Shown one piece after another: positions 1,035 through 64,000 of a stretch of 64,000 bases of DNA. Both the position numbers and the translations under genes were made by a program. The notes under the pieces are model-generated. The model made no database searches. It was given only the letters and a program-made list of their open reading frames with translations, and was not told the DNA's origin. The DNA lies in assembly GCF_036971445.1 (NCBI RefSeq), contig NC_091472.1, forward strand, positions 187,860,001 through 187,924,000, given 5' to 3'. Positions within the stretch are counted from its first letter, which is position 1. Each line of letters opens with the position of its first letter. This DNA is from Narcine bancroftii (Eukaryota).

Positions 1035-4000
1035 CTATTGAAAGAACAAGTAACAAGACAACCAAAAATATCACTGCATTTGATTTGATTAGAAATAACA
1101 TTTCACAAATATGGTACAACACTTTCTGCATCAATGCAGGCAAAATCAGGGATTTATAAATTTGGCAAATCTTGAGTTATTGGCCTGAACCTCTTTCAAC
1201 TCCATGATTGTGCTACTCAAATATGTTCAACTGCTGGGATACCATGTTAAGACTGTCAAGAGTCAAAAAAATAAACTTACTAACTAGTTACGGATCTGTG
1301 ATACAAAATAAACTTTCATAAATCATTATACTGAAGGCTATAATTAATCTTAAAGCCTCAAATGTGAGTTATTCAACACCAATGAAACCAGTTATAATTG
1401 ACATTTTCCATTTAATTGTACCTGCAAAACAACAAGAACATCTAGCTGTTGATTTTTACTGTACATCTCAAAAGCAATTCGAAAAAGTCCCTGAATGCTG
1501 TAAAACCACAGACTGTTCACCATGATCGGCATCTTCAGTCCTTCAAATCGAAATTCTGAAAATAAATATGTACAGAAATCATAATTGAGTTGAAATGGGT
1601 AAAGAAAATAAAAAGTGTAGTTTATTTTATAGTCAACATGTGGATGTTAAGAATTGAAAGATGAGCTGATAGAGCCCATTTCTGTGCTGTACATTTCCAA
1701 TTGAGATTAGAGGCCATGTAATCATTTGGCACATGGAGGTCACTGTGTAAGTGATATTTTGGAGGAGATATAATCATAAATATGAATTATCATTCCACAG
1801 TTTTACATGGTTTTAGGTTCTTTGTGCTTTTAAACAAAGTGCTAATGTATTACCTGAACTAAAATTGAGTTTCGTTGCCAATCCTCTCTTTGCAAATTTT
1901 GCATGAATTCTTGGATGATTTTCAGTGCGAATGCTAGTTTTTGCAATAACATCAGCACCAAGAAAAAGGGGAATCAAATTCTCCTAAAGGTGGGAAAAAA
2001 ATTAAACTTTGAAAGAAATATATTAACAGATATAATGTACATCAACCTTGGTTTTATTTACTTATAAGAAATTAATGTTTCCAAATTGAATTATCTGATA
2101 CTTGAGCACAGTAAATTTGCAGCTTTCAACCAGTCAGTAAAATAGCCTAACTCTAAAATGAGACTTGGAGAGGTAGAATGGACAAATCAGAGGTTAGATC
2201 CCTCTGATTCAAGTCTTTACTAACCAAAATTACACTTGCTGTACTAAATCCAGAGTTCTGTAGGCTTCTAATTAAATTAGCAAATTTGTGAATGACACCG
2301 ATGAATGGGATTGTAGATAGTGAAGGTGGTTGTCAAAGATTGCAGAAGGATCTCTCAGGAAGAGGAATGAATGGCTGTTGAAATTTAATACAAAGAAGTG
2401 CAAGGTGTTACACTTTGGGAGGTCTAACATAAGTAGGACATAAACAGTGAATGTTGAGATCGAAGCATTGAGATTGAGGTTGGTCAAATAGGCCTTCAGT
2501 ACATTAGCCTTCATAAGTCAGAGAACTGAGTACAGAAGTTGGGAATGTAGAAAATCCTTTGCCAGAATCGGTAACCAGAGGGAGGAGAGATTTAATGGGA
2601 ACGATGAGGTAAATTTTGTGTTTTTATAGAGGGTGGTGGATGCATGCAATAGGCTGCCAGAAGAAGTTGATGCAGGTACTTTGGGCAGTGCTAAAGAAAA
2701 AAAAATTGGGCAGATTAGATATGGGTCAAATACGAGCAGAAAGGACGTGGAAAAAATTTGAGCTGAAGAGCTTGTTTCCACGATCTGGCTTTATTAAACA
2801 TCCAAATGAAAGGATTAATCAACCTAATTGAAGTGTGTAATTTAATACAATTATTGAATCATTTTTCATTATCGGGTTGAGACCATCAAACAATGACAGT
2901 CACCAGTAACTTCGAAGAAAACTCCTACAAAAGTATCTCAATCTGCGGGGAGAAATTTTCCCATGTCATTGCCAAGGAATAGGTGGCACAGACTTGCTGT
3001 GGTGTATGACGGGTGATATCAGCAAATCTCGTTAAATAATTCACTCATCCAGTATTGCAGGAAGCTATAAAACCCATTATTTTCAAGCACTGTGTTGACT
3101 TGCCCAGTAAATACCCTAGCCGGACTCTCCGTTCTATGCTCATTGAACTTTCTAATTGAGCAAATTGATCGTCTGTTCGCAGGAGAACCCTTCTCACTCT
3201 TCTTGATACGAGTAAACAAACAAAATTTTACATGTATCAATGCTGTTGAATCAACACATTACAAGTGTTTCAAATTTACAGCACCTGCAAGGAAGAGTCT
3301 TGATTGTTGCCAAATTCAATCCATTGACATAAAATATTAAAAAAACAATTTTACACAGGCCGTTTCGGCCCACGAGCCGGTACAATTTTGAACGGGGGGT
3401 GGGACGGAGCCCGGGGTGGGGGGGGGGGTGGGACGGAGCCCGGGGTGGGACGGAGCCCGGGGTGGGGCGGAGCCCGGGGTGGGGGGGGGGTGGGACGGAG
3501 CCCGGGGTGGGGGGGGGGGGGGGTGGGACGGAGCCCGGGGTGGGGGGGGGGGGGGGTGGGACGGAGCCCGGGGTGGGGGGGGGGGGGGGTGGGACGGAGC
3601 CCGGGGTGGGGTGGGGGGGGGGTGGGACGGAGCCCGGGGTGGGGTGGGGGGGGGGTGGGACGGAGCCCGGGGTGGGGTGGGGGGGGGGTGGGACGGAGCC
3701 CGGGGTGGGGTGGGGGGGGGGTGGGACGGAGCCCGGGGTGGGGTGGGGGGGGGGTGGGACGGAGCCCGGGGTGGGGTGGGGGGGGGGTGGGACGGAGCCC
3801 GGGGTGGGGTGGGGGGGGGGTGGGACGGAGCCCGGGGTGGGGTGGGGGGGGGGTGGGACGGAGCCCGGGGTGGGGTGGGGGGGGGGTGGGACGGAGCCCG
3901 GGGTGGGGTGGGGGGGGGGGTGGGACGGAGCCCGGGGTGGGGTGGGGGGGGGGTGGGACGGAGCCCGGGGTGGGGTGGGGGGGGGTGGGACGGAGCCCGG

Positions 4001-4577
4001 GGTGGGGTGGGGGGGGGGTGGGACGGAGCCCGGGGTGGGGTGGGGGGGGGGTGGGACGGAGCCCGGGGTGGGGTGGGGGGGGGGTGGGACGGAGCCCGGG
4101 GTGGGGTGGGGGGGGGGTGGGACGGAGCCCGGGGTGGGGTGGGACGGAGCCCGGGGTGGGGTGGGGGGGGGGTGGGACGGAGCCCGGGGTGGGGTGGGGG
4201 GGGGTGGGACGGAGCCCTGGGGTGGGACGGAGCCCTGGGGGGGGTGGGAACCGCGGCCCAGTCCCGATCTCTGGCGCTGGCCGCTCCACCAACCGTGGCG
4301 CCCGCAACAACGCCGCTGTGTGAATTCGGGGGGTCAGAGACCGTGATGGACGGCAAGGGCCCCGAGCGAACGAACGTTCTGTAGATTATATTTTAGAGAA
4401 GCTGGGTTGCATTTTAACACCTAATCGGAATGCAGTAATCTTTAGAATACCAACCTCTACCTGAAAATCCTGGCCTAAGGTAAGGGAATTGGACGAACTC
4501 AAGAAGACGAATCGGTATTTCCTGGCGCCCACGCTCCATTCTGGGAAACAGACGGGTAAGCGCTCAACAGAGGCCAT
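159..4577 (-). CDS. Uncharacterised 4-exon gene, 418 aa; exons 4577-4461, 1983-1854, 1555-1422, 1034-159
   Basis: Manual splicing: all three introns are GT-AG with compatible phases (117+130+134+876=1257 nt). Continuous ORF MASVERLPVCFPEW...GQDFQ|ENLIPLFLGADV...NFSSE|FRFEGLK...VVLQ|NLWKARIGD...VLYSSLIYK*. Family not recognised. Confidence 0.82.
1422..1555 (-). CDS. Exon 3 of the uncharacterised gene
   Basis: tttcag acceptor, CAG|gtac donor, open frame FRFEGLKMPIMVNSLWFYSIQGLFRIAFEMYS. Confidence 0.82.
1854..1983 (-). CDS. Exon 2 of the uncharacterised gene
   Basis: ctttag acceptor, CAG|gtaat donor, open frame ENLIPLFLGADVIAKTSIRTENHPRIHAKFAKRGLATKL. Confidence 0.82.
2275..2775 (+). mobile_element. 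Degenerate CR1-like LINE fragment
   Basis: Remnants of CR1 RT C-terminal motifs (SKF.DDT, FN..KCKV.HFG) and a CR1-type 3' region. Confidence 0.55.
3385..4250. repeat. G-rich minisatellite, ~31-bp unit GGGGTGGGACGGAGCCCGGGGTGGGGTGGGGG
   Basis: Directly visible tandem array; explains the low-complexity ORFs at 3337-4384. Confidence 0.95.
4461..4577 (-). CDS. Exon 1 of the uncharacterised gene
   Basis: aacATGG Kozak-like start in the CpG island; CAG|gtagag donor in phase 0, matching exon 2. Confidence 0.72.
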
Positions 4578-38825: not shown

Positions 38826-41257
38826 TGTCCAATGTGACTACTTTGCCCTCTTCTGAGGTTATGTTCTCTGCTGATTTTTTTATTTTACTTTTATGAATTT
38901 TCAAACTCAACAATCCATAATGGAAAAAAAAACACTACATTCTCCAATTATATACAAGCTTCACCATCGTCCAATTTTACTCTCCCATCCCCAATCCTTT
39001 TCACTATTAATATATCCAAAGACCAAATTAAATACGCAGTCACCCTAAAGAAAACAAGTCCCTTATTCCTGTAACATTTATCAATATCCCTTCCTGACAA
39101 GTTAGACATATCGGTAAAGGTTCAAAAAGTAAAACAAAACAATTACACCTAAAAAATTCTTACAAAAAAGTAAAAACCCAAAGGAAAAAGATGTAATAGT
39201 AGGATGCGTTGGGACCCCACCACCAGCCATCACTTTTTTGAATTTTTGTATCTCAATCTGATTACGATGGACCCACCCCCAAGGAGGGAGTAGGCAGGAG
39301 CAGACAGCGATGAAGCACAAGGGACTGCACTATATCTTTGCACCTATCTGACCCAGGTACTGTTGCCAAATTTTAAGGAGGTTGTCATATTTCCTCCTTA
39401 GGTTACAGGTAATTTTCTCTGGGGAACACAGCTCTGCATTTCCACATTCCAACACGCAATGCCTAGATGAGAGTCCAATTTCCAGGTATCTGCTATGCAC
39501 TACCTGGCCACCACCAAAGTGATAAACACAAATTGGATTTGAAATTTGGACAGCTTCATCGTAAACCTTGTGTCCATGATCTTTCCCAACAGGAACAACT
39601 CTGGGTCCTGTGAACACTCTTTACCTATGATTTTCTCTAGGACTTAGCCAAGCTCTACCCAAAAGGGCCTCACCTTGGAGCATGACCAGGTTGGGTGCAC
39701 AAAGGTTCCTATCTCTATGTCGCACCTAAAACATTGATCTGAAATTTCTGGCTTAGTCTTGTTCAATTTCTGCAGCGCATAGTACAACTGGTGTAGAAAA
39801 TTATACTGCATCAGCCTGTATTGAGTATTAATAATTGAGGTAATGCTGTCACGACATAGGTCTGACCAGCACCTTTAATCAATCGTTACACCCAAGTCTG
39901 ACTCCCACCATGGGCTAGATTTATGAAGACCCATCTTCAGGCTTTCGGCTTGGAGTAAGAAATACATTGCCTTAATAAACTTTCAACTCCCCTTTCAAAT
40001 CAGTGCCACTGCACACTAGTAGGACTGTAGCTGGACCTAATTTGTCCCATTTTAAAAAAAAACCTTAACTGAAGATAGCAAAAGAATTTCCTCTTTGACA
40101 AATCATATTTATTTTTAAGTTGTTCAAATGACATCATCTGACCCTGCTCATCGCAGTCTTTGATACACCTAATCCCTTTCTGGCACCAGGTGTTCAGGAT
40201 CTTGTTACCTATTGTCCATGGTATTAAGCCATCCTGAGTCAGGGCTGTTTTTGAAGATAACTTCACTTTAAATCCAATGCATTGATTAATCTTGTTCCAT
40301 GCATAAAAAATATGTTTTAATAAGGGAGTGTCTTTGTCCCCAGATAACAATTTAGAGTCCAATTTATAAATAAAGCATTTGCTATCTTCTCACCTATCGT
40401 GTGCAGACCAGTTTGTCCCCAGGGTGGTATATCTCCTCCCTCAAACAGTGAAGTGATATACCTTGACTGTGCTGCCCAATAATTTTTTTTAATTTTTTTT
40501 ATTTTTCACACTATGAACCATACTGACCAAAATACACACAAACATTTCCCTCTTGAATATACACAGTGTCATTTTCTCCCCCTTTCCCCCCTCCCTTCCC
40601 TCCCTCCTTCACCCCCTCCCCACCCACTCAACATTTAACATATATGATACATTAAACAATGTCATCACACAATGAAAATAAACAAGAAATTTGTGTCTTC
40701 TACTTTTATATACTGGGTCAGTTCATTTTGTCTTCTTCTCCTTCTGTCATTTTAGGTGGTGGAGGTCCGTGGTAGGACTTCTCTGTTGTGTTCCATGTAC
40801 AGTTCCCAAATTTGTTCGAATACTGTGATGTTATTTCTTAAATTATATGTTTTTTTTCCCAATGGAATACATTTATTCATTTCTATGTACCATTGCTGTA
40901 TTCTCAGGCTATCTTCTAATTTCCAGGTTGACATAATACATTTTTTTGCTACAGCTAAGGCTATCATAATAAATCTTTTTTGTGCTCCATCCAAATCGAG
41001 TCCAAGTTCTTTACTTCTTATATTACTTAGAAGAAAGATCTCTGGATTTTTTGGTATGTTGCTTTTTGTGATTTTATTTAACATCTGGTTTAGATCTTCC
41101 CAAAACTTTTCCACTTTCTCACATGCCCAAATTGCATGTACTATTGTTCCCGTTTCCTTCTTACAGCGAAAACATCTATCTGATACTGTTGGGTCCCATT
41201 TATTTAACTTTTGGGGCGTGGTGTATATCCTGTGTAACCAATTATATTGTATCATGC

Positions 41258-42031
41258 TGTAATGGAGGATTAAAACCATGTACCCAGATGCTTTTTGCTT
41301 ATGTGGAACTGACGACACTGGGTCCACACGCAGGTCACCTTACTTTCAGAACTAGCAGATGTAATTAAACTCAGCCATGGGGACTTATCTGAAGATACAC
41401 TTTGAAATGGAATTCCACTGTGAGGCCCAGGGAAAGCAGTTGTCAAATGCAACACTCTGAAATTGACGAATTGGTCACAACCTGTCTTGCTCGAGAAGTT
41501 TTAATAAGTCTTTGTATCTACGAGATAAACCAGGAAATTATAACATCCTGGTTCCATAATAATTAATCTTCTAAATTGTAGAATGTAATGTTCAGTTTTG
41601 ATTTTGACTGACAAATATTAGAAGGAGTAGGCGCATGATTAATTGTTTTTGGGGTATATAAGCCTGTGGTCCTGCTGCTGAAGTTTAGACTCTCCGAGGG
41701 GTGGGAACACCCCTTGTCAAGAAGGAAGAACAGCCAGAGTCCGAGCAACGTCCCGGTCGGGGGAGGTGGAGAAGCTGCTACCAGCGCCCTGACAACCTAC
41801 TACAAGTGTGCAGTTGTTGCCTCGCTTCGGCAGTTGGGACCAGTCCAAGCGTTGATAAGTATAGTTGGGAAGGGCTTGCATATTGTAGTGTGAAATCAGC
41901 TTTTGAATTAGTAATAAACATTTGTATAAACTGAACTGCTCTCGGTGTGTGTGTCTATTTTCTTTCGGTAGCTCAAACACTGTGACCAATCTAAAATGAA
42001 CAAAATGAGAGGTATAAGTTTACCCAAGACA
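41258..42031 (+). repeat. ERV 5' LTR (774 bp)
   Basis: TGTAATGG...CCAAGACA; TATATAA 41655-41661; AATAAA 41913-41918. Confidence 0.95.
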
Positions 42032-42033
42032 AT

Positions 42034-42051
42034 TGGCGCTGCGAGCAGGGT
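42034..42051 (+). other. Primer-binding site, tRNA-Ser-like
   Basis: TGGCGCTGCGAGCAGGGT 2 nt after the LTR; near-complementary to vertebrate tRNA-Ser(TGA/CGA) 3' ends as recalled. Confidence 0.8.
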
Positions 42052-42061
42052 TGGTCTCAAG

Positions 42062-43186
42062 ATGTTTCGCCGAAAGAAAGAGGTGAGCCCTGAGCAGTTC
42101 TTGATTCCTGGATGGACTTCCAAAGACGATGGGTTTGGCATGTTGGCCAATACCTTGTCTTTGTTGGGACCACCCATTAGTTGGGATGAGAAGTTAGACT
42201 CATCAAGTGCACCTCTGGGAGAGCGGGTTGCCACTCTCCTTCGAGAAAGTAAATTTCCTGATAAAAAGGGAACGCTGACGAATGGTTTTTGGTTGCTGGC
42301 CACAGCATTACGCCACTCCGTTCAGCGTGAAGCAGAATTAATTCAAAGAGAAGTAGAATCTCAGTGCAAAAGAAAGCAATTAGAGGAGGAGCTAGAAGTC
42401 CTGCGACAATGCTGTTCCATGATGAGCGAGATTGTTCACACCAGTCAGGACAGAGCCAAAGAATGGGAAGATAAGCATGTCCAAATGATTTGCCGTGATA
42501 TTAAACTCCGGCAGCAGCTCTGTGCAGATAAGGAAAGGCATGGAGTAGAACCCGATTCATATCGTATTCATGCCATGATAAGGAATGGTGACGATCCTGA
42601 TGTAATTGAGGATTGGGATGGGAATATCTGGAATGACAATGGTAATAATGCAGATACTCCTCAGCATGTGTCTAACATACTACCCTCTCCATCTGCTGTT
42701 CACGCCCGCCCTATAAGGCAGCAGATTTCCCAAACAGACAGAAGGGAGGATGATGTAAGGGTAGAGATGGAAGGGATAGATACCCCGGTTTCCCATGTGG
42801 ACCCAGGGGAAAATACCCAAACCCCTGCTTATGCTCTATGGCCTACTCCCTCTGTTGGATGGCCTCCACCTCCTCCCCTAGACTGGGTGGAGGACCCTGT
42901 GAGCCAAAGTGGGAACAGGGGTCGGAAGGAGTCAATGATCCGTGATTTCTCTGTAAAAGAGCTGGCTGCCATTGGAGATCGATTTAGGCAAAAAGCAGGG
43001 GAACATCATCCCCAGCTGCTGAGTCCTCCTGGCCCAGCTGTGCTTTCTGCTCCCACTGCTGCTTCTATCGAGCTGGCTTCTCCTGCTCCAGTTACTCATG
43101 ATGAGGTAAAACAATGGGTTAAACAGGCTCTTAAAGATAACAATAGCATGTGGTCCTGGAAGCCCCCAAACCCTTCTGAAGCCTGA
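42062..43186 (+). CDS. gag: ERV Gag (capsid region apparently deleted)
   Basis: First ATG after the PBS (MFRRKKE); coiled-coil N-half, WDGNIW, RDFSVKEL..IGDRFRQKAGE class III gag motif; ends at TGA in frame with pol. Confidence 0.8.
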   Translation: MFRRKKEVSPEQFLIPGWTSKDDGFGMLANTLSLLGPPISWDEKLDSSSAPLGERVATLLRESKFPDKKGTLTNGFWLLATALRHSVQREAELIQREVESQCKRKQLEEELEVLRQCCSMMSEIVHTSQDRAKEWEDKHVQMICRDIKLRQQLCADKERHGVEPDSYRIHAMIRNGDDPDVIEDWDGNIWNDNGNNADTPQHVSNILPSPSAVHARPIRQQISQTDRREDDVRVEMEGIDTPVSHVDPGENTQTPAYALWPTPSVGWPPPPPLDWVEDPVSQSGNRGRKESMIRDFSVKELAAIGDRFRQKAGEHHPQLLSPPGPAVLSAPTAASIELASPAPVTHDEVKQWVKQALKDNNSMWSWKPPNPSEA

Positions 43187-45622
43187 AGGTGTGGGCAGGA
43201 TTCCCGTGTCTACTCCATCGAGACACGGCGCACACACGGGGATCCGCGGCCCTACATACCGTTAACAATCCACTGGGGTGGGGGTAATGATCGCCAATAC
43301 TTGGCTTTGGTCGACACCGGTGCAGAGCACTCGGTGATTCCTGGTAATCCCAACCTCTGGACTGGACCGGCCTTTCGAATAGAGGGGTTGGGAGGAGCGG
43401 TCACCCTGGCAAAGGAAATAAAAGTCTGTGCCATGGTGGGTGATAGCCCTTCCCCTGTCTGGTTACATGCCCTGGTGGCTGCTACTGACGAGTGTATCCT
43501 GGGTATTAATATGTTGGCCGGTATGGCCCTTAATACTAGCCAAGGGGGATTTGAATTTGGAATTCGAACTATTACAAAAAAACTAGTAGTGGGTCAGGTT
43601 AAGTGGGATCCTGTGATGGTGCCAGCCCCCATGAAACCAGTGTGCATTCCACAATATCGTCTCCCTGGGGGGCAGGAAGAGATTACTGCCACCATCGATG
43701 CTCTGCAAGAAGAAGGGGTAGTGAGGCCCGCAACGTCGCCCTTTAATAGCCCTGTTTGGCCGGTCCAGAAGCCGGACGGCTCCTGGAGAATGACAGTTGA
43801 TTATCGTTTTTTGAACAAACATGCCCCACCACTTGCTTCAGCAGTTCCGGACATTGTCACCCTTATTGAAAACATTGCTACTGGGAACTCAGGAACATGG
43901 TATGCTGTCATTGATCTTGCTAACGCCTTCTTCAGTATTCTTATAGCTGAGGACTCACAGGATCAGTTCGCCTTTACCTGGAAGGGGCGCCAGTATACCT
44001 TCACCCACCTTCCAGTATCGCCTTCCCTCTCAATTCACCATTATATTGATGATGTGGCCTCCTGGAGCCTCTGGCAGAAACAAGAGGGTCGCCGAGTCCC
44101 ACTGGGATTCTGGTCACGTACCATGCCTGAGGCTGCCACTCGTTATTCTGCTTTTGAACAACAGTTACTAGCCTGTTACTGGGCCCTGCTAGAGACTGAA
44201 AGAATGACAGGCGATGCAGATGTTCAATTGCGACCTGCACTTCCTATAATGAATTGGGTCCTGGCTAATGATGCTAATCTAAAGATCGGGCGGGCTCAGC
44301 AGTCTTCTATTGTTAAATGGAAGTGGTATATTCAGAGTCGTGCGACCAGAGGGCCTGAAGGGGTGGGCCGCGTACACGAACAGGTGGCTTACCATCCCAG
44401 GTCAGGAACTCACTTATCGGAGGAGGGGGATGGTGGCTCCAGTCAGTATGCTGAGTTGAAGGCAGTCACTTTACCACTAGATCCCCATGATCACCCTCTT
44501 CGCCTGTTTACTGATTCCTGGGCTTTGGCTAATGGACTTGTGGTATGGATGCCTGATTTGCAAAAGAACAACTGGATGATACATGACCGCCCAGTATGGG
44601 GCAAAGAGTTGTGGCAGCTGTTGTGGGATGCTTCCCACCATCGTGAGATAACCGTTTATCACGTTGATGCCCATACCAATATGGCGACTAACATGGCTCA
44701 ACATAATGCAGTAGCAGATCAGCTTGCCACTATCAGCTGTGCTGATACCGTCCCCCTGGCTCGATGGGCACATGAACAGAGTGGTCATTTGGGGGAGAAG
44801 GGATCAGCTATGTGGTCCCGTACACATGCTTTATCCGTCCATCAGGATGATGTCCGCATGGTCGTACGTACATGCCCAGAATGTCAGCTTGTGAAGTTCC
44901 ATACCATTCCACCTGGTCCACATGGCCGAATAAAATGGGGTGCTCACTCAGCTGCGGTCTGGCAAATTGATTACATAGGCCCCATGCTAGACTGTATGGG
45001 TAAATATTATATCCTAGTAATGGTTGACACCTTTTCGGGCCTGGTTTTTACTTTTCCCACCAAGACGGCTGACCAAGCTAGCACTATCCAAGGACTAAAC
45101 CATTTGATTTATCGTTATGATGTTCCAGAGGAGATTCACTCTGATAATGGCTCGCACTTCTCCAGGAAAGCAATCTGTGATTGGGCAAATGACAACGGTA
45201 TTTTATGGATCCACCATATTCCTTATTACCCGCAGGCTGCCGGGTTAGTTGAACAAATGAACGGCTTACTGAAGGAACAAATTCGTTTGGAAACATCACT
45301 GGGGACCCAGAAGGGATGGTGCCATGTGCTGCAGCAGGCAGTCGACAATTTGAATCATCGCCCTTTAAAAGGAGGTACACCTTTCCACCGACTTCTTCAC
45401 GCTTCTGAACTACAGCCTATTCCAGAGGAAAAACAGTCATTGCCCCCCATCCCTGAACTAGAGAATGTTGGACAAAAGGTATGGGTGGCACCACCAGGTA
45501 GTGGCCCTCCTGTAAAAGGGGAAATAGTGACACCTGCCCAGGGTAACACTCGGTGGGTAGCTATTGAGGGACAGGATGATTTAGTCTGTTTAAACACTGA
45601 ATGCTTATGGTATCATGAGTGA
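43187..45622 (+). CDS. pol: ERV Pol: protease - truncated RT - truncated RNase H - integrase
   Basis: Open from the gag stop: DPRPYIPLTIHWG, LVDTGA, DLANAFF, YIDD, AELKA/TDS, HHCC and D-D(35)-E. Confidence 0.93.
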   Translation, partial: RCGQDSRVYSIETRRTHGDPRPYIPLTIHWGGGNDRQYLALVDTGAEHSVIPGNPNLWTGPAFRIEGLGGAVTLAKEIKVCAMVGDSPSPVWLHALVAATDECILGINMLAGMALNTSQGGFEFGIRTITKKLVVGQVKWDPVMVPAPMKPVCIPQYRLPGGQEEITATIDALQEEGVVRPATSPFNSPVWPVQKPDGSWRMTVDYRFLNKHAPPLASAVPDIVTLIENIATGNSGTWYAVIDLANAFFSILIAEDSQDQFAFTWKGRQYTFTHLPVSPSLSIHHYIDDVASWSLWQKQEGRRVPLGFWSRTMPEAATRYSAFEQQLLACYWALLETERMTGDADVQLRPALPIMNWVLANDANLKIGRAQQSSIVKWKWYIQSRATRGPEGVGRVHEQVAYHPRSGTHLSEEGDGGSSQYAELKAVTLPLDPHDHPLRLFTDSWALANGLVVWMPDLQKNNWMIHDRPVWGKELWQLLWDASHHREITVYHVDAHTNMATNMAQHNAVADQLATISCADTVPLARWAHEQSGHLGEKGSAMWSRTHALSVHQDDVRMVVRTCPECQLVKFHTIPPGPHGRIKWGAHSAAVWQIDYIGPMLDCMGKYYILVMVDTFSGLVFTFPTKTADQASTIQGLNHLIYRYDVPEEIHSDNGSHFSRKAICDWANDNGILWIHHIPYYPQAAGLVEQMNGLLKEQIRLETSLGTQKGWCHVLQQAVDNLNHRPLKGGTPFHRLLHASELQPIPEEKQSLPPIPELENVGQKVWVAPPGSGPPVKGEIVTPAQGNTRWVAIEGQDDLVCLNTECLWYHE

Positions 45623-46046
45623 CATGTGTCAGGCTTCTTTGTTCCAGGTTCTCCATTTTACACTCCTGGTGATCTGGCTTAACAGCTGCTTTGATGCCAG
45701 CAATTGGATTTGTAATGTCGAGGACGTTCCAAGGGAGTTACCCGTGGGAAACACGGTCCGATGCATTACACCAAGGAAGTCCTCGGTCACCAGCCTCAAG
45801 TGCAGCTTATATAAATATGTTATTGTTCAGCATGTTTCAAAATCTGTTCGTGAGCTCCAGTACCTGGGTATTGTGGCCAACAAGGATAATTTGAGCCTTG
45901 GTTGGAATCCTTTCTCATGGCTAACTGCTACATTTGGGGGGGTGGGCCACACTATCCTCCGTTGGTTGCTCGCGTCATTGCTTATCTTTGTAATTGTTGT
46001 TTTGATTTCTCTTTTTTCGCTCCCTCTGTACTCAAATACTGGTTAG
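45615..46046 (+). CDS. env: ERV mini-Env (signal-like segment plus C-terminal TM); probably expressed via splice 42082^45648
   Basis: Env position; hydrophobic VLHFTLLVIWL; WNPFSWL followed by TM ILRWLLASLLIFVIVVLISLF. Confidence 0.65.
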   Translation: MSDMCQASLFQVLHFTLLVIWLNSCFDASNWICNVEDVPRELPVGNTVRCITPRKSSVTSLKCSLYKYVIVQHVSKSVRELQYLGIVANKDNLSLGWNPFSWLTATFGGVGHTILRWLLASLLIFVIVVLISLFSLPLYSNTG

Positions 46047-46071
46047 GCCTCGCAAATGACAGATTGTGACC

Positions 46072-46082
46072 AAGGGGTGGGA
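46072..46082 (+). other. Polypurine tract
   Basis: AAGGGGTGGGA abutting the 3' LTR TG. Confidence 0.85.
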
Positions 46083-46856
46083 TGTAATGGAGGATTAAAA
46101 CCATGTACCCAGATGCTTTTTGCTTATGTGGAACTGACGACACTGGGTCCACACGCAGGTCACCTTACTTTCAGAACTAGCAGATGTAATTAAACTCAGC
46201 CATGGGGACTTATCTGAAGATACACTTTGAAATGGAATTCCACTGTGAGGCCCAGGGAAAGCAGTTGTCAAATGCAACACTCTGAAATTGACGAATTGGT
46301 CACAACCTGTCTTGCTCGAGAAGTTTTAATAAGTCTTTGTATCTACGAGATAAACCAGGAAATTATAACATCCTGGTTCCATAATAATTAATCTTCTAAA
46401 TTGTAGAATGTAATGTTCAGTTTTGATTTTGACTGACAAATATTAGAAGGAGTAGGCGCATGATTAATTGTTTTTGGGGTATATAAGCCTGTGGTCCTGC
46501 TGCTGAAGTTTAGACTCTCCGAGGGGTGGGAACACCCCTTGTCAAGAAGGAAGAACAGCCAGAGTCCGAGCAACGTCCCGGTCGGGGGAGGTGGAGAAGC
46601 TGCTACCAGCGCCCTGACAACCTACTACAAGTGTGCAGTTGTTGCCTCGCTTCGGCAGTTGGGACCAGTCCAAGCGTTGATAAGTATAGTTGGGAAGGGC
46701 TTGCATATTGTAGTGTGAAATCAGCTTTTGAATTAGTAATAAACATTTGTATAAACTGAACTGCTCTCGGTGTGTGTGTCTATTTTCTTTCGGTAGCTCA
46801 AACACTGTGACCAATCTAAAATGAACAAAATGAGAGGTATAAGTTTACCCAAGACA
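46083..46856 (+). repeat. ERV 3' LTR (774 bp)
   Basis: Copy of the 5' LTR at constant offset 4825; five ORF-track translations identical. Confidence 0.95.
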
Positions 46857-48307
46857 CATGCGTAACCTCGTGTTTATTGCATCTGCTCAACATTTGGAAG
46901 AAGATTCACATAGAAAGGAATAAAACAAATTAGCAACTACCAAAATTAATATTGACTCAAAATCAACTAATCCCTGTCACAATAGATAACCTTTCATTTA
47001 GAGAATGGGAGAGAAAAGGGATTAAAAGAATAGAAAATTGTTTTTTGGGAAATAAATTATTATTTTTTGAACAAATGAAGGACAAATATGGTATAACTCA
47101 TGGTACAATGTTTGCATACCACCAACTGAAAACCTTCTTGAAGGACAAATTTGGAAGCAGGCTGAGGTTACCAGAAGGAAGCAATTGTGAATATATGATT
47201 ACAGACACAATGATAATTAAAAGATTTATAACAAACATGTACATCAAACTGCAAGAGAAAGAGTATGAGGAAACAAGCTGTAAACCCAAACAAAAATGGG
47301 AACAAGATCTAAACATAAAGAATGAAACATGGGAAAAGCTATGCCCAATAATATTTCTTAAAGTTTGGTGATCTCAGTGCTCGGACTGTAATCCCAGGTT
47401 AATTTTGGCAAGGAAACCATGGTCACTCTCCTATTTCAAATTAACCTACTTACCTGTGAATTAAAATTCTGAAAGAATTTCCAGGGCAACACCATGGGCA
47501 AAGTCTGGAAGAGGTACTGAAGCCTCGGCAACACATTCAACTTGATCAATTGACCCTGCCCATCAACATGATGGGAGGGTCATCCATGTGCTTAGGTCCT
47601 CAAATTTTTTGAGCAAGGGTGTATATATAAATTTTGCAGATTATTGTCCACCCTGACTCCCAGGTACTTAATCCCTTTATGTGGCCATTTCAATTGACTG
47701 CTTTATTTAAATTGACAATAATCCCCTTTTGTAAGTGGCATAACTTCACTCGTGTCCCAATTGATCTTTTACCCAGAGACTTTCCCATAATCCTCCAGAG
47801 TAGAGTGAAGCTTGGCCAGCGAAGTTGCCGGGTCTGTCATCATCAAGAAATAGGTTGACTTTGTGTTCTTCCCAGCCCACTCTGAGCCCCTTGAAGTCTG
47901 GATCCTGTTGTATACCTTCAGTCAATGGTTCTATAGCCAAAATGAATAGAGCTGAAGACAATGGACACCCCTATCTACTAGATCTCAATAGAAGGAAGGC
48001 TGGAGATATTTGCCCATTCATCACAACTTTAGCCTTGGGCATCTTGATCCAATTTATAAAAATTGACCCTCATCCCAATTTCTCCAGTACCTTAAACAGG
48101 AAATTTCATTCTAACCTATCAAACACCTTCTCAGTATCCAGGGCTACAGCGACACTTGGGTCATCCCTTGACTGTGCCAAATGTATGATACTCAGCAATC
48201 TGTTTATATTATCTGCAGCCTGTCCTTTTTTGCAGAAAGCCCGGTTGGTCTACATTAGTTAGCTTTGGCAAATGCTTCACCGATCTACTTGCCAGGGCCT
48301 TCACAAG

Positions 48308-57613: not shown

Positions 57614-58259
57614 TCTGGTTTGGGTGCTAATAAGATGAAAATTCTGCATTGGGAAGCATATAGATGATGTGGAAGAAGCTTGAAGGCCAAAAAATGACGT
57701 AAAGGAAAAGAGTACTTAAAATAAATGGATATTCTGTACAGTTGGCCACTGATAAGCAAAGAAAGTTGAAATAAGACTGTGTCACAGTGAATTACCTATC
57801 ATGATAATTGAAGGAGGAGCTCGGAAGGCACTCACATCTTTGTGTGTACCTTTAGAGAATCATTTAGAACAAGAATAAAGATGAAGGATTGTACAGGAAT
57901 TGGCTCCAATCCAAAAAGCTTTTTGGGAATTAGATGAAAGTTCAAGCCAATCATTTTGGCTTAAGTGGAGATTTGTAAAATATGTGACAATTAAATAGTC
58001 ATTAATAAGATAACTATTGTAGATTTATAGATTTCCATTAGGAAGCTTTAGTAGACAACTGAAAGTTCTTGTTTCTGGGCTACATGCAACTGTTCCATAA
58101 CTTAAAAATATGAAGGAGTGGAAGAACCAATATTTTGAACTTCAATTACAATTAAAATGGGCAGTATTGCATCAAGGTGCCTCAAGCAGGCGAATAATGC
58201 TTTTGTTCCCTGGCTATTGTCTGCAATGAATGCTGGCTATGTTTACAAGAGATGCCTCA

Positions 58260-61200
58260 TCCCCCCATTCTCCCCCATCCGCCCATTCTCCCCCATCCGC
58301 CCATTCTCCCCCATCCCCCCATTCTCCCCCATCCCCCCATTCTCCCCCATCCCCCCATTCTCCCCCATCCCCCCATTCTTCCTCACCCCCCCCAGTCTTC
58401 CTCACCCCCCCAGTCTTCCTCACCCCCCAGTCTTCCTCACCCCCCAGTCTTCCTCACCCCCCAGTCTTCCTCACCCCCCAGTCTTCCTCACCCCCCCATT
58501 CTTCCTCACCCCCCCATTCTTCCTCACCCCCCATTCTTCCTCACCCCCCCATTCTTCCTCACCCCCCCATTCTTCCTCACCTCCCCATTCTTCCTCACCC
58601 CCCCATTCTTCCTCACCCCCCCATTCTTCCTCACCCCCATTCTTCCTCACCCCCCCATTCTTCCTCACCCCCCCATTCTTCCTCACCCCCCCATTCTTCC
58701 TCACCCCCCCATTCTTCCTCACCCCCCCATTCTTCCTCACCCCCCCATTCTTCCTCACCCCCCCATTCTTCCTCACCCCCCCATTCTTCCTCACCCCCCC
58801 ATTCTTCCTCACCCCCCCATTCTTCCTCACCCCCCCATTCTTCCTCACCCCCCCATTCTTCCTCACCCCCCATTCTTCCTCACCCCCCCATTCTTCCTCA
58901 CCCCCCCATTCTTCCTCACCCCCCCATTCTTCCTCACCCCCCCATTCTTCCTCACCCACCCCATTCTTCCTCACCCCCCCATTCTTCCTCACCCCCCATT
59001 CTTCCTCACCCCCCATTCTTCCTCACCCCCCATTCTTCCTCACCCCCCATTCTTCCTCACCCCCCATTCTTCCTCACCCCCCATTCTTCCTCACCCCCCG
59101 TTCTTCCTCACCCCCCGTTCTTCCTCACCCCCCGTTCTTCCTCACCCCCCGTTCTTCCTCACCCCCCGTTCTTCCTCACCCCCCGTTCTTCCTCACCCCC
59201 CGTTCTTCCTCACCCCCCGTTCTTCCTCACCCCCCGTTCTTCCTCACCCCCCGTTCTTCCTCACCCCCCGTTCTTCCTCACCCCCCGTTCTTCCTCACCC
59301 CCCGTTCTTCCTCACCCCCCGTTCTTCCTCACCCCCCCAGTCTTCCTCACCCCCCCAGTCTTCCTCACCCCCCCAGTCTTCCTCACCCCCCCAGTCTTCC
59401 TCACCCCCCCAGTCTTCCTCACCCCCCCAGCCTTCCTCACCCCCCCAGCCTTCCTCACCCCCCCAGCCTTCCTCACCCCCCCAGCCTTCCTCACCCCCCC
59501 AGCCTTCCTCACCCCCCCATTCTTCCTCACCCCCCCATTCTTCCTCACCCCCCCATTCTTCCTCACCCCCCCATTCTTCCTCACCCCCCCATTCTTCCTC
59601 ACCCCCCCAGTCTTCCTCACCCCCCCAGTCTTCCTCACCCCCCCAGTCTTCCTCACCCCCCCAGTCTTCCACACCCCCCCAGTCTTCCACACCCCCCCAG
59701 TCTTCCTCACCCCCCAGTCTTCCTCACCCCCCCAGTCTTCCTCACCCCCCCAGTCTTCCTCACCCCCCCAGTCTTCCTCACCCCCCCAGTCTTCCTCACC
59801 CCCCCAGTCTTCCTCACCCCCCCAGTCTTCCTCACCCCCCCAGTCTTCCTCACCCCCCCAGTCTTCCTCACCCCCCCAGTCTTCCTCACCCCCCCAGTCT
59901 TCCTCACCCCCCCAGTCTTCCTCACCCCCCCAGTCTTCCTCACCCCCCCAGTCTTCCTCACCCCCCCAGTCTTCCTCACCCCCCCAGTTTTCCTCACCCC
60001 CCCAGTCTTCCTCACCCTCCCAGTCTTCCTCACCCCCCCAGTCTTCCTCACCCCCCCAGTCTTCCTCACCCCCCCAGTCTTCCTCACCCCCCCAGTCTTC
60101 CTCACCCCCCCAGTCTTCCTCACCCCCCCAGTCTTCCTCACCCCCCCAGTCTTCCTCACCCCCCCAGTCTTCCTCACCCCCCCAGTCTTCCTCACCCCCC
60201 CAGTCTTCCTCACCCCCCCAGTCTTCCTCACCCCCCCAGTCTTCCTCACCCCCCCAGTCTTCCTCACCCCCCCAGTCTTCCTCACCCCCCCAGTCTTCCT
60301 CACCCCCCCAGTCTTCCTCACCCCCCCAGTCTTCCTCACCCCCCCAGTCTTCCTCACCCCCCCAGTCTTCCTCACCCCCCCAGTCTTCCTCACCCCCCCA
60401 GTCTTCCTCACCCCCCCAGTCTTCCTCACCCCCCCAGTCTTCCTCACCCCCCCAGTCTTCCTCACCCCCCCAGTCTTCCTCACCCCCCCAGTCTTCCTCA
60501 CCCCCCCAGTCTTCCTCACCCCCCAGTCTTCCTCACCCCCCAGTCTTCCTCACCCCCCAGTCTTCCTCACCCCCCAGTCTTCCTCACCCCCCCAGTCTTC
60601 CTCACCCCCCCCCCAGTCTTCCTCACCCCCCCAGTCTTCCTCACCCCCCCAGTCTTCCTCACCCCCCCAGTCTTCCTCACCCCCCCAGTCTTCCTCACCC
60701 CCCCAGTCTTCCTCACCCCCCCAGTCTTCCTCACCCCCCCAGTCTTCCTCACCCCCCCAGTCTTCCTCACCCCCCCAGTCTTCCTCACCCCCCCAGTCTT
60801 CCTCACCCCCCCAGTCTTCCTCACCCCCCCAGTCTTCCTCACCCCCCCAGTCTTCCTCACCCCCCCAGTCTTCCTCACCCCCCCAGTCTTCCTCACCCCC
60901 CCAGTCTTCCTCACCCCCCCAGTCTTCCTCACCCCCCCAGTCTTCCTCACCCCCCCAGTCTTCCTCACCCCCCCAGTCTTCCTCACCCCCCCAGTCTTCC
61001 TCACCCCCCCAGTCTTCCTCACCCCCCCAGTCTTCCTCACCCCCCCAGTCTTCCTCACCCCCCCAGTCTTCCTCACCCCCCCAGTCTTCCTCACCCCCCC
61101 AGTCTTCCTCACCCCCCCAGTCTTCCTCACCCCCCCAGTCTTCCTCACCCCCCCAGTCTTCCTCACCCCCCCAGTCTTCCTCCCCCCCCAGTCTTCCTCC

Positions 61201-61425
61201 CCCCCCAGTCTTCCTCCCCCCCCCCAGTCTTCCTCCCCCCCCCAGTCTTCCTCCCCCCCCAGTCTTCCTCCCCCCCCAGTCTTCCTCCCCCCCCCAGTCT
61301 TCCTCCCCCCCCCAGTCTTCCTCCCCCCCCAGTCTTCCTCCCCCCCCAGTCTTCCTCCCCCCCCCCAGTCTTCCCCCCCCCCCAGTCTTCCTCCCCCCCC
61401 CCCAGTCTTCCTCCCCATTCTTCCC
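58260..61425. repeat. C-rich minisatellite, 18-20-bp unit (CCCCCCCAGTCTTCCTCA and variants), ~3.15 kb
   Basis: Directly visible; explains the ~1000-aa low-complexity ORFs. Confidence 0.97.
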
Positions 61426-62443: not shown

Positions 62444-63246
62444 CAAAGTGGTGGTAACTGATTCCAGCAACATGGACCATAGTTGGAGAGATACCTGAAG
62501 GGTTTAAGTTGTGCACCAAAGTGGTGGTAACTGATTCCAGCAACATGGACCATAGTTGGAGAGATACCTGAAGGGTTTAAGTTGTGCACCAAAGTGGTGG
62601 TAACTGATTCCAGCAACATGGACCATAGTTGGAGAGATACCTGAATGGTTTAAGTTGTGCACCAAAGTGGTGGTAACTGATTCCAGTAACATGGACCATA
62701 GTTGGAGAGATACCTGAAGGGTTTAAGTTGTGCACCAAAGTGGTGGTAACTGATTCCAGCAACATGGACCATAGTTGGAGAGATACCTGAAGGGTTTAAG
62801 TTGTGCACCAAAGTGGTGGTAACTAATTCCAGCAACATGGACCATAGTTGGAGAGATACCTGAAGGGTTTAAGTTGTGCACCAAAGTGGTGGTAACTGAT
62901 TCCAGTAACATGGACCATAGTTGGAGAGATACCTGAAGGGTTTAAGTTGTGCACCAAAGTGGTGGTAACTGATTCCAGCAACATGGACCATAGTTGGAGA
63001 GATACCTGAAGGGTTTAAGTTGTGCACCAAAGTGGTGGTAACTGATTCCAGCAACATGGACCATAGTTGGAGAGATACCTGAATGGTTTAAGTTGTGCAC
63101 CAAAGTGGTGGTAACTGATTCCAGTAACATGGACCATAGTTGGAGAGATACCTGAAGAGTTTAAGTTGTGCACCAAAGTGGTGGTAACTGATTCCAGCAA
63201 CATGGACCATAGTTGGAGAGATACCTGAAGGGTTTAAGTTGTGCAC
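62444..63246. repeat. 73-bp tandem repeat, 11 copies
   Basis: Unit caaagtggtggtaactgattccagcaacatggaccatagttggagagatacctgaagggtttaagttgtgcac; 803 = 11 x 73. Confidence 0.97.
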
Positions 63247-64000
63247 CAAAAGCAGAGAGGTGGGATGATGCACTGCTTCTCATATCTGTATGCCAACAGA
63301 ATGGAAATTGTCTTAGTCTAAGATTTGTAATACAGATAAAAACCGATTAAATCCTTGAGATTGGAAAGGGGATGAATTATGGACAGCAATTGAGGGATTA
63401 CTGTATACATCTGTGTAAATCTCAAAGTTGCTATGGATTTTGTATTGTTAAGGCAGTGGACAGCAGTAGTTTTGAAATTATTACAAAATTTGGGCCATAA
63501 CTATTTCTATAGTAAAATTTTATATATTATTTGCATACTGCAGCTTGGCTATTAAAATGGGTATGTTGTTGAATTTGGGGTTTTAGTTCCATAGGTTAAA
63601 AATCTTCCATCTTGTAAATTAGTTCCACTCACGGCAAGAATTTTGGAGGTAACATGCAGTGTTACAGAGATAAATATTAGGGCAATGACAGTCTTCACTG
63701 AGAAGAGGCCCATATTGGACATCAGCTAAATTTGAGGAAGGTGCTCCATGGTCCATCCCAGTCAATGAAAGGCCTTTGTGAGGTTGAAAGACATAGACCG
63801 TTTGGTACTGCTTTACATTTCTTATAGAATTGCCATGCAGTGAAGATCATGTCCACTATATATGTGTATGGTCAGTATCCACTTTGATGCAGAGGGCAGC
63901 TCTTTGACCATTGGGAAGATGTATTTGAAAAGACCATGACAGTGTTTCACTATTGCCTTCAGTGCATCAGTACAAAAACAGATCATGACCTCAAAAGGCG

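Follow-up and report, generated by a model that had tools for sequence, protein, structure and literature searches.

The 64,000-nucleotide stretch of Narcine bancroftii DNA analysed here (the window; NC_091472.1, positions 187,860,001 to 187,924,000) contains an endogenous retrovirus (ERV) from which five in-frame segments are missing, a provirus of 5,599 bp at 41258-46856 (+ strand) flanked by identical long terminal repeats (LTRs) and by a 5-bp target-site duplication with its left copy at 41253-41257 and its right copy at 46857-46861 (no strand assigned). The 5' LTR (41258..42031, +) is 774 bp long with TG...CA ends and is identical to the 3' LTR (46083..46856, +). The primer-binding site (PBS; 42034..42051, +) matches the 3' end of tRNA-Ser, and a pattern derived from it has seven matches in the genome, two called as tRNA-Ser by ARAGORN (TGA, CGA) and five uncalled; the polypurine tract lies at 46072..46082 (+). 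The gag gene (42062..43186, +) is open over 374 codons and ends with a TGA stop at 43184 that is in frame with pol (43187..45622, +), itself a single open frame of 811 codons composed of protease, a reverse transcriptase (RT) remnant, the connection, an RNase H remnant and integrase. The protease DTG motif (43313..43324, +) is intact, integrase (44735..45619, +) has both its HHCC and D,D(35)E motifs and is whole in the window copy, and the env remnant (45648..46046, +) consists of a signal peptide joined in frame to the transmembrane end.

Undeleted whole natural copies from the same genome were used as the reference for sizing the deletions, which amount to 678 nt in gag, 66, 450 and 177 nt in pol and 1,089 nt in env, all multiples of three. 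A sequence-only reading of the stretch had described pol as one open frame with three in-frame gaps in which LPQG, the RT thumb and the first catalytic Asp motif of RNase H are lost, and the comparison with a whole copy confirms this. The gag deletion (junction 42990..42999, +) takes out 226 codons between 3-9-nt repeats and is internal, gag running on to its TGA rather than breaking off after RQKAGE as had been read. Pol deletion 1 (44009..44013, +; 66 nt) takes the QG of LPQG and the following residues; the break placed near 44005 is real and is located after LP, not before HLP. Pol deletion 2 (44046..44056, +; 450 nt) removes the remaining palm and the thumb directly after YIDDV with a 10-nt exact repeat at the breaks, and pol deletion 3 (44383..44389, +; 177 nt) removes the RNase H Asp motif with a 6-nt repeat. 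The env deletion (45820-45825, +) is inherited from the old parent family. The whole natural copy has a pol of 1,043 codons with LPQG, two FLG motifs and FTDGS, all absent from the window pol, which retains DTG, YIDD, QIDY, HSDNG and EQMNG; no dUTPase is found in either. The segment lost from gag is likely the capsid region, the leads being an Fv1 cluster (0.90) and DUF5535 (E 0.018); a PDB sequence search with it gives no match and a single-sequence structure model is uninformative (predicted local distance difference test score, pLDDT, 39). Protein database searches find no close relatives of gag outside Narcine bancroftii, all matches being to this host.

With one mismatch allowed, the genome contains 425 places with the first pol junction and 317 with the gag junction (control patterns 0), and because they are common to hundreds of copies the junctions are real and not assembly errors, nor are they unique to the locus. 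All breaks are located on 2-10-nt repeats, the kind of microhomology that the sequence-only reading had proposed to look for, and the deletions would have arisen singly through RT template switching at such repeats. Splicing as their source was rejected, a GT-AG reading fitting none of the five breaks. The probable order of steps is env, 450, 177, 66, gag 678 and finally loss of the gag stop: one locus has the 450-nt deletion only and another the 450- and 177-nt deletions, these two intermediates being supported by one locus each, followed by three-deletion copies and then by copies with the gag deletion, so that within pol the 450-nt loss is first and the 66-nt loss last. Short repeat pairs in the whole copy are in frame in 38-45% of cases, and in 63% where the repeat is at least 9 nt (30 and 16 pairs only), and our own arithmetic from these frequencies gives roughly 1 in 11 for three pol deletions all being in frame, the earlier estimate of 1 in 27 being too small.

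Each of the best 30 matches is a 5.6-kb element free of internal indels, target duplications are present in 28 of the first 30 copies, and the 91 junction copies fetched by position comprise 68 window-like, 12 whole-gag and 11 mosaic elements. LTR pairs of gag-deleted copies differ at a median of 1 of 774 positions (41 of the 105 pairs measured are identical), those of gag-whole copies by 6-21 substitutions, and most pairs from old relatives, whether full-RT or carrying other deletions, are 82-98% identical. The deleted lineage is young and multi-copy and was amplified after the loss of RT parts. Over its full length its LTR is ~90% identical to that of a complete lineage described below and only its 3' half matches the old parent LTR; the alignments suggest that the deleted lineage may have captured a new U3. 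The old parent LTR contains nothing matching the 5' half (window 41258-41645), which is ~90% identical to the complete lineage. A 98% identical protein is annotated in Narcine bancroftii, and P0001, whose 14 members are RefSeq-type "uncharacterized proteins" built on copies of this family, represents parasite open reading frames (ORFs), not host genes. Two host gene models, SPACA9 isoform X1 and BEN domain protein 5 isoform X2 (P0121, P0122), include pieces of the family gag, possibly through exonisation or as an annotation artefact. An older sister lineage (L099-L106, L110) with whole gag has a different in-frame pol deletion of 846 nt extending from the YIDD region to RNase H; it accounts for 13 of the 30 LPQG-bearing loci sampled on C1, and several of its copies also have a different, frameshifting env deletion of 1,127 nt.

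The full-length helper supposed by the sequence-only reading is found in a complete young lineage of ~30 copies, ~88% identical to the window copy, with 33 of 40 scored matches at 97% or above (some are probable duplicates) and with older members also present. The whole 1,043-codon pol is present in 10 of the 21 copies fetched, and gag, pol and env are all open in six; the PBS is within 0-2 mismatches of that in the window, and the ratio of deleted to complete copies is ~425 to 30. Old full-RT parent copies were rejected as helper, the best 30 having no whole pol frame (longest 840 codons) and LTR pairs mostly 82-98% identical. Compared at 430 diagnostic columns, several copies change sharply from 100% helper alleles to 0%, with crossovers near 43780, 43950, 45290 and 45790 plus internal patches, and some of these mosaics have themselves multiplied and have identical LTRs. 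Retroviral recombination requires co-packaged RNAs, and the clean mosaics are therefore the best evidence for the helper and point to co-packaging of parasite and helper RNA. All seven mosaics tested have the deleted-lineage LTR at 39 of 39 diagnostic sites, and their wholly deleted-type U3 and U5 fit RT recombination and gene conversion alike. Judged from copy number, the complete relative and the mosaics, the lineage is very probably dependent on a helper, and the sequence-only claim of an RT-dead, helper-dependent, amplified lineage stands.

Two groups of mosaics are distinct in composition. Env-less mosaics of 6,959 bp among L111-L130 combine helper gag and RT with the 3' end and LTR of the deleted lineage, several with identical LTR pairs, and their 965-codon pol stops short within the integrase tail; either these too are complemented or integrase would work without its tail. 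An amplified mosaic (L192, L195, L196, L203, L205, L206, L213, L229) has helper gag and protease, with gag open over 627-634 codons, and deleted RT, and by its composition would be a parasite that regained whole Gag but not RT.

Protease and integrase evolve neutrally in the deleted lineage and are not kept for function. Changes polarised with parent and helper and fixed on the deleted branch are nonsynonymous to synonymous (N:S) 16N:4S in integrase and 6N:2S in protease, compared with 14:37 and 3:20 on the helper branch (pooled 22N:6S vs 17N:57S, p 5e-7), and the dN/dS near or above 1 contradicts the sequence-only proposal that selection retained both enzymes. Among 74 copies the shared variants are 34:8 in integrase and 6:1 in protease, with singletons at 76:28 and 33:12, respectively, and the shared-to-private N:S ratio is 0.93 for deleted-lineage pol vs 0.27 for the helper (p 0.0003). 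Variants were divided into inherited and private on a tree of 110 of the 145 junction-type copies fetched, leaving out 12 gag-whole, 16 mosaic and 7 partial copies; inherited integrase variants (60N:19S) are not below private ones (112N:66S). A stop at 45431 in the integrase tail is present in 59 of the 91 position-fetched copies and in 65 of the 110 in the tree, making the whole integrase of the window copy, correctly read as complete, a minority state in the family. Stops in the integrase core are inherited in a clade of six copies (stop at 44927) and in a clade of two. A "stop at 45290" proved to be an artefact of single-letter classing, present in no copy, and was left out of the stop counts and the position test. 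Segmental duplication was rejected as the origin of shared disruptions, three copies with a common integrase stop having different flanks.

The reading frames of gag and pol show a different pattern. Gag/pol deletions of at least 30 nt are in frame in six of six multi-copy cases vs 6 of 18 single-copy cases (p 0.014, two-sided), the six being the four gag and pol deletions of the window copy, the 846-nt pol deletion of the older sister lineage (12 loci) and a 1,011-nt gag deletion (2 loci). An 848-nt case was left out, being read as the 846-nt deletion with a later loss, and two further single-copy frameshifting losses were not counted in the 18. Env provides an internal control, with one multi-copy deletion in frame and one not. 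From gag to RNase H the 110 copies have no stop among 179 inherited substitutions vs 17 among 457 private ones (p 0.005) and 2 inherited vs 25 private frameshifts. No such stop deficit among inherited variants is seen in integrase and env of these copies; all four inherited stops are in integrase (position test p 0.043), and none occurs among the 51 amino-acid changes fixed on the deleted branch. Event counts by clade were dropped because recombination scatters old variants over many clades. Frame retention is moderately supported, being strongest from gag to RNase H and not absolute, and selection on the open frames appears probable from these counts. To this degree the earlier suggestion of a genome selected for translation or for avoidance of nonsense-mediated decay (NMD) is upheld, with two inherited pol frameshifts departing from it.

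Of the 110 copies, 36 have a sense codon, TCA, instead of the gag stop; 34 of these belong to a single clade, and the same pattern occurs at 79 genome places. The window copy keeps its TGA and the fusion frame is confined to this 79-copy subclade, where the frame starting at the gag ATG extends over 1,122-1,186 codons in 31 of the 36 copies. The change does not occur in the 12 gag-whole, 16 mosaic, 25 parent and 20 helper copies read. The fusion clade has no pol stop before 45389 among 166 substitutions vs 16 among 470 (p 0.016), the difference for stops and frameshifts together giving p 0.10. A self-sufficient retrovirus requires much more Gag than Gag-Pol, and hence only a parasite would be free to give up the gag stop.

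In copies retaining the gag TGA, such as that in the window, pol is likely produced by read-through. A predicted hairpin directly 3' of the stop (43198..43245, +) is a candidate signal (z -2.56, with 1 of 200 shuffles equally good), and its pairs are mostly kept across all three lineages, which show little variation among them. Read-through is described as able to shield RNA from NMD, the shielding being lost once an in-frame stop follows the read-through signal (PMC5360307). The parasite RNA likely relies on helper particles for packaging, presumably in company with helper RNA, and on helper enzymes for copying, and selection would act on the amount of parasite RNA that persists. With an early stop the untranslated tail would be longer and the unspliced RNA open to NMD, so that in-frame shortening would be favoured and stops better tolerated closer to the 3' end; both in-frame deletion and gag-stop loss would shorten this tail, and the tolerance of late stops fits. 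RNA protection as the cause of frame selection is in our estimate an even call, and the same balance applies to the explanation as a whole, namely that the gag-pol frames may be kept open because translation protects the RNA and not for use of the protein.

Several observations weigh against this explanation. The region from gag to RNase H was picked after the per-domain tables had been seen, the stop deficit over the whole of gag and pol is not significant (p 0.13), and the regional value becomes p 0.077 after dropping CpG sites and helper/parent alleles. Some private frameshifts are possibly assembly errors, and three of the six in-frame deletions prompted the flagging of the locus, leaving only three independent of that choice. 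An open pol is not required, since independent insertions carry a common protease frameshift and integrase stop; the two inherited pol frameshifts define clades of 2-3 copies, and of 44 gag-deleted copies sampled by position, just 3 have pol open throughout. In Rous sarcoma virus (RSV), pol stops are reportedly harmless if ribosomes stop at gag. The starting event of the mosaics could be gene conversion. Lastly, the amino-acid constraint on gag, although weak (inherited 53N:38S vs 132N:56S private, p 0.058), favours a protein acting in cis.

This alternative, to which we give about half the credence of RNA protection, is that a truncated Gag or Gag-Pol fusion takes its own RNA into helper particles, with selection on the frame and the Gag N terminus and with the protease, RT and integrase residues as passengers. 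Stops and frameshifts inherited in gag number 0 vs 19 private ones (p 0.009), and together with the weak N deficit, the Gag-Pol fusion frame reached independently in 79 copies and a precedent in mouse intracisternal A-particle (IAP) elements (PMC6466679, PMC7411935), this is what a cis-acting protein would lead one to see. The gag N deficit fades, however, without helper/parent alleles (ratio 0.77, p 0.55), the likely capsid part, the usual surface for co-assembly, is the part deleted, and a cis-acting protein alone leaves unexplained why the RT remnants are short of stops also in copies where the gag stop is retained.

Slightly less probable again is chance with a founder effect, whereby a few well-expressed sources with strong LTRs would have had in-frame deletions through luck and repeat bias, their frames remaining open through youth. 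Repeat pairs that are in frame 38-63% of the time, the existence of inherited disruptions, the non-significant stop test over gag and pol, and the deleted-lineage LTR of all seven mosaics, by which the LTR may drive success, are in its favour. Luck of this kind is difficult to reconcile with large single-copy deletions being in frame in only a third of the cases counted, with both deletions outside the flagged lineage (846 and 1,011 nt) being in frame where one multi-copy env deletion is not, and with the lack of stops among fixed changes and among inherited variants upstream of integrase. That the element is a satellite keeping protease and integrase in order to supply them is very improbable: their catalytic motifs are intact in the window copy and none of the six multi-copy deletions removes either (the chance expectation is about a quarter by our own estimate), but the fixed and inherited N:S counts are those given above, and stops in integrase are inherited in clades of 6, 2 and 65 copies, as is a protease frameshift.

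Returning to RNA protection, the fullest form of that explanation, held tentatively and with rather less assurance than its parts, is that the family may be a germline fossil series of a defective-interfering genome selected for translation alone, in which six steps would have led to one long meaningless ORF that shields the RNA from NMD and still recombines with its helper.

Transcript-like contigs bear on expression. A splice donor at 42082..42083 (+), after gag codon 7, is joined to an acceptor at 45647/45648 in the env frame, the GT..AG joint being present in contigs from two runs, X1 and X2, that are only guessed to be RNA. Within the LTR a 113-nt GT..AG joint (window 41858-41972) occurs in contigs of run X3. 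Contig depth is very high over the LTR and env ends, where LTR-driven spliced transcripts are possible. Four contig sets whose RNA nature is a guess cover the element, and among the 32 pieces listed, out of ~4,100, not one spans a deletion junction with 31 letters on each side.

The provirus apparently lies inside a decayed ORF2 resembling that of a long interspersed nuclear element (LINE; window 40000-41339, - strand), and further LINE-like remnants are located downstream (window 46857-48262); the LINE family label given to this surrounding sequence is our assumption. Elsewhere in the window G/C-skewed minisatellites at 3394-4143, 58255-61413 and 62444-63250 are built from a 33-mer (x23), an 18-mer (x177, 97% matches) and a 73-mer (x11), respectively, and the long "ORFs" over them are repeat artefacts.

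By protein sequence comparison the element belongs with the class III (spuma-related) ERVs, its Pol being nearest to spumavirus/ERV-L Pol. The top PDB matches of pol are foamy-virus Pol and integrase, identity to the best vertebrate homologues, among them P0019, which we take to be MuERV-L, is 42-51% over most of pol, and the TG...CA LTRs, PBS, polypurine tract and 5-bp target duplication are all present. The likeness to class III ERV-L/ERV-S thus consists of the foamy-like Pol and integrase and the 5-bp duplication. ERV-L proper has a dUTPase after integrase, a Leu PBS and no env, whereas the ray element has no dUTPase, in contrast to many of its top pol homologues, a Ser PBS and, in whole copies, a TLV_coat env; the combination of tRNA-Ser PBS and TLV_coat env is presumably closer to ERV-S. 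A literature search found no published description of this ERV family, general ERV papers dominating the results and making this weak evidence of absence.

Among other non-autonomous LTR elements, the interiors of ETn/MusD, VL30 and MaLR are largely non-coding or replaced. The ray element is unlike these in being an in-frame miniature of gag-pol-env. Copying by an autonomous partner is described for ETn/MusD, VL30/MLV and MaLR/ERV-L in PMC6466679. The same source and PMC7411935 present mouse IAP 1-delta-1 as a non-autonomous, internally deleted element that outnumbers the new insertions of its helper, has a gag-pol fusion ORF and is reportedly helped in cis by translation. The ray element is likewise a non-autonomous deleted ERV, with a fusion frame in the 79-copy subclade only, but IAP 1-delta-1 is class II with one 1.9-kb deletion and the ray element is class III with five stepwise in-frame deletions, a fusion reached separately via gag-stop loss and neutral protease and integrase residues. 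Bovine ERVK[2-1-LTR] D-types (PMC10924933) are defective elements that form the majority, are mobilised in trans by the fewer competent copies and outcompete them, and are described as without intact ORFs, unlike the mostly open frames of the ray element. In mouse hepatitis virus (MHV), a coronavirus, a long ORF aids propagation of defective-interfering RNAs even with a non-functional protein (work cited in PMC8255065); MHV is a cytoplasmic RNA virus with neither reverse transcription nor a germline record.

Deleted non-autonomous ERVs that outrun their helpers are already known, and selection of frame over sequence has been reported for coronavirus defective RNAs. New are the class III case in a cartilaginous fish, which suggests that a class III retrovirus was recently active there, the dated stepwise series, the neutral protease and integrase beside conserved frames and the independent Gag-Pol fusion. 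Open ERV frames are routinely taken as a sign of activity or host co-option, and here frame and function separate. Parent, intermediates, parasite, helper and recombinants co-exist in one genome with hundreds of datable copies, and because of this series the question of why deleted ERVs of the IAP 1-delta-1 kind outdo their helpers, through a cis-acting protein or through RNA stability, becomes testable by counts of natural alleles.

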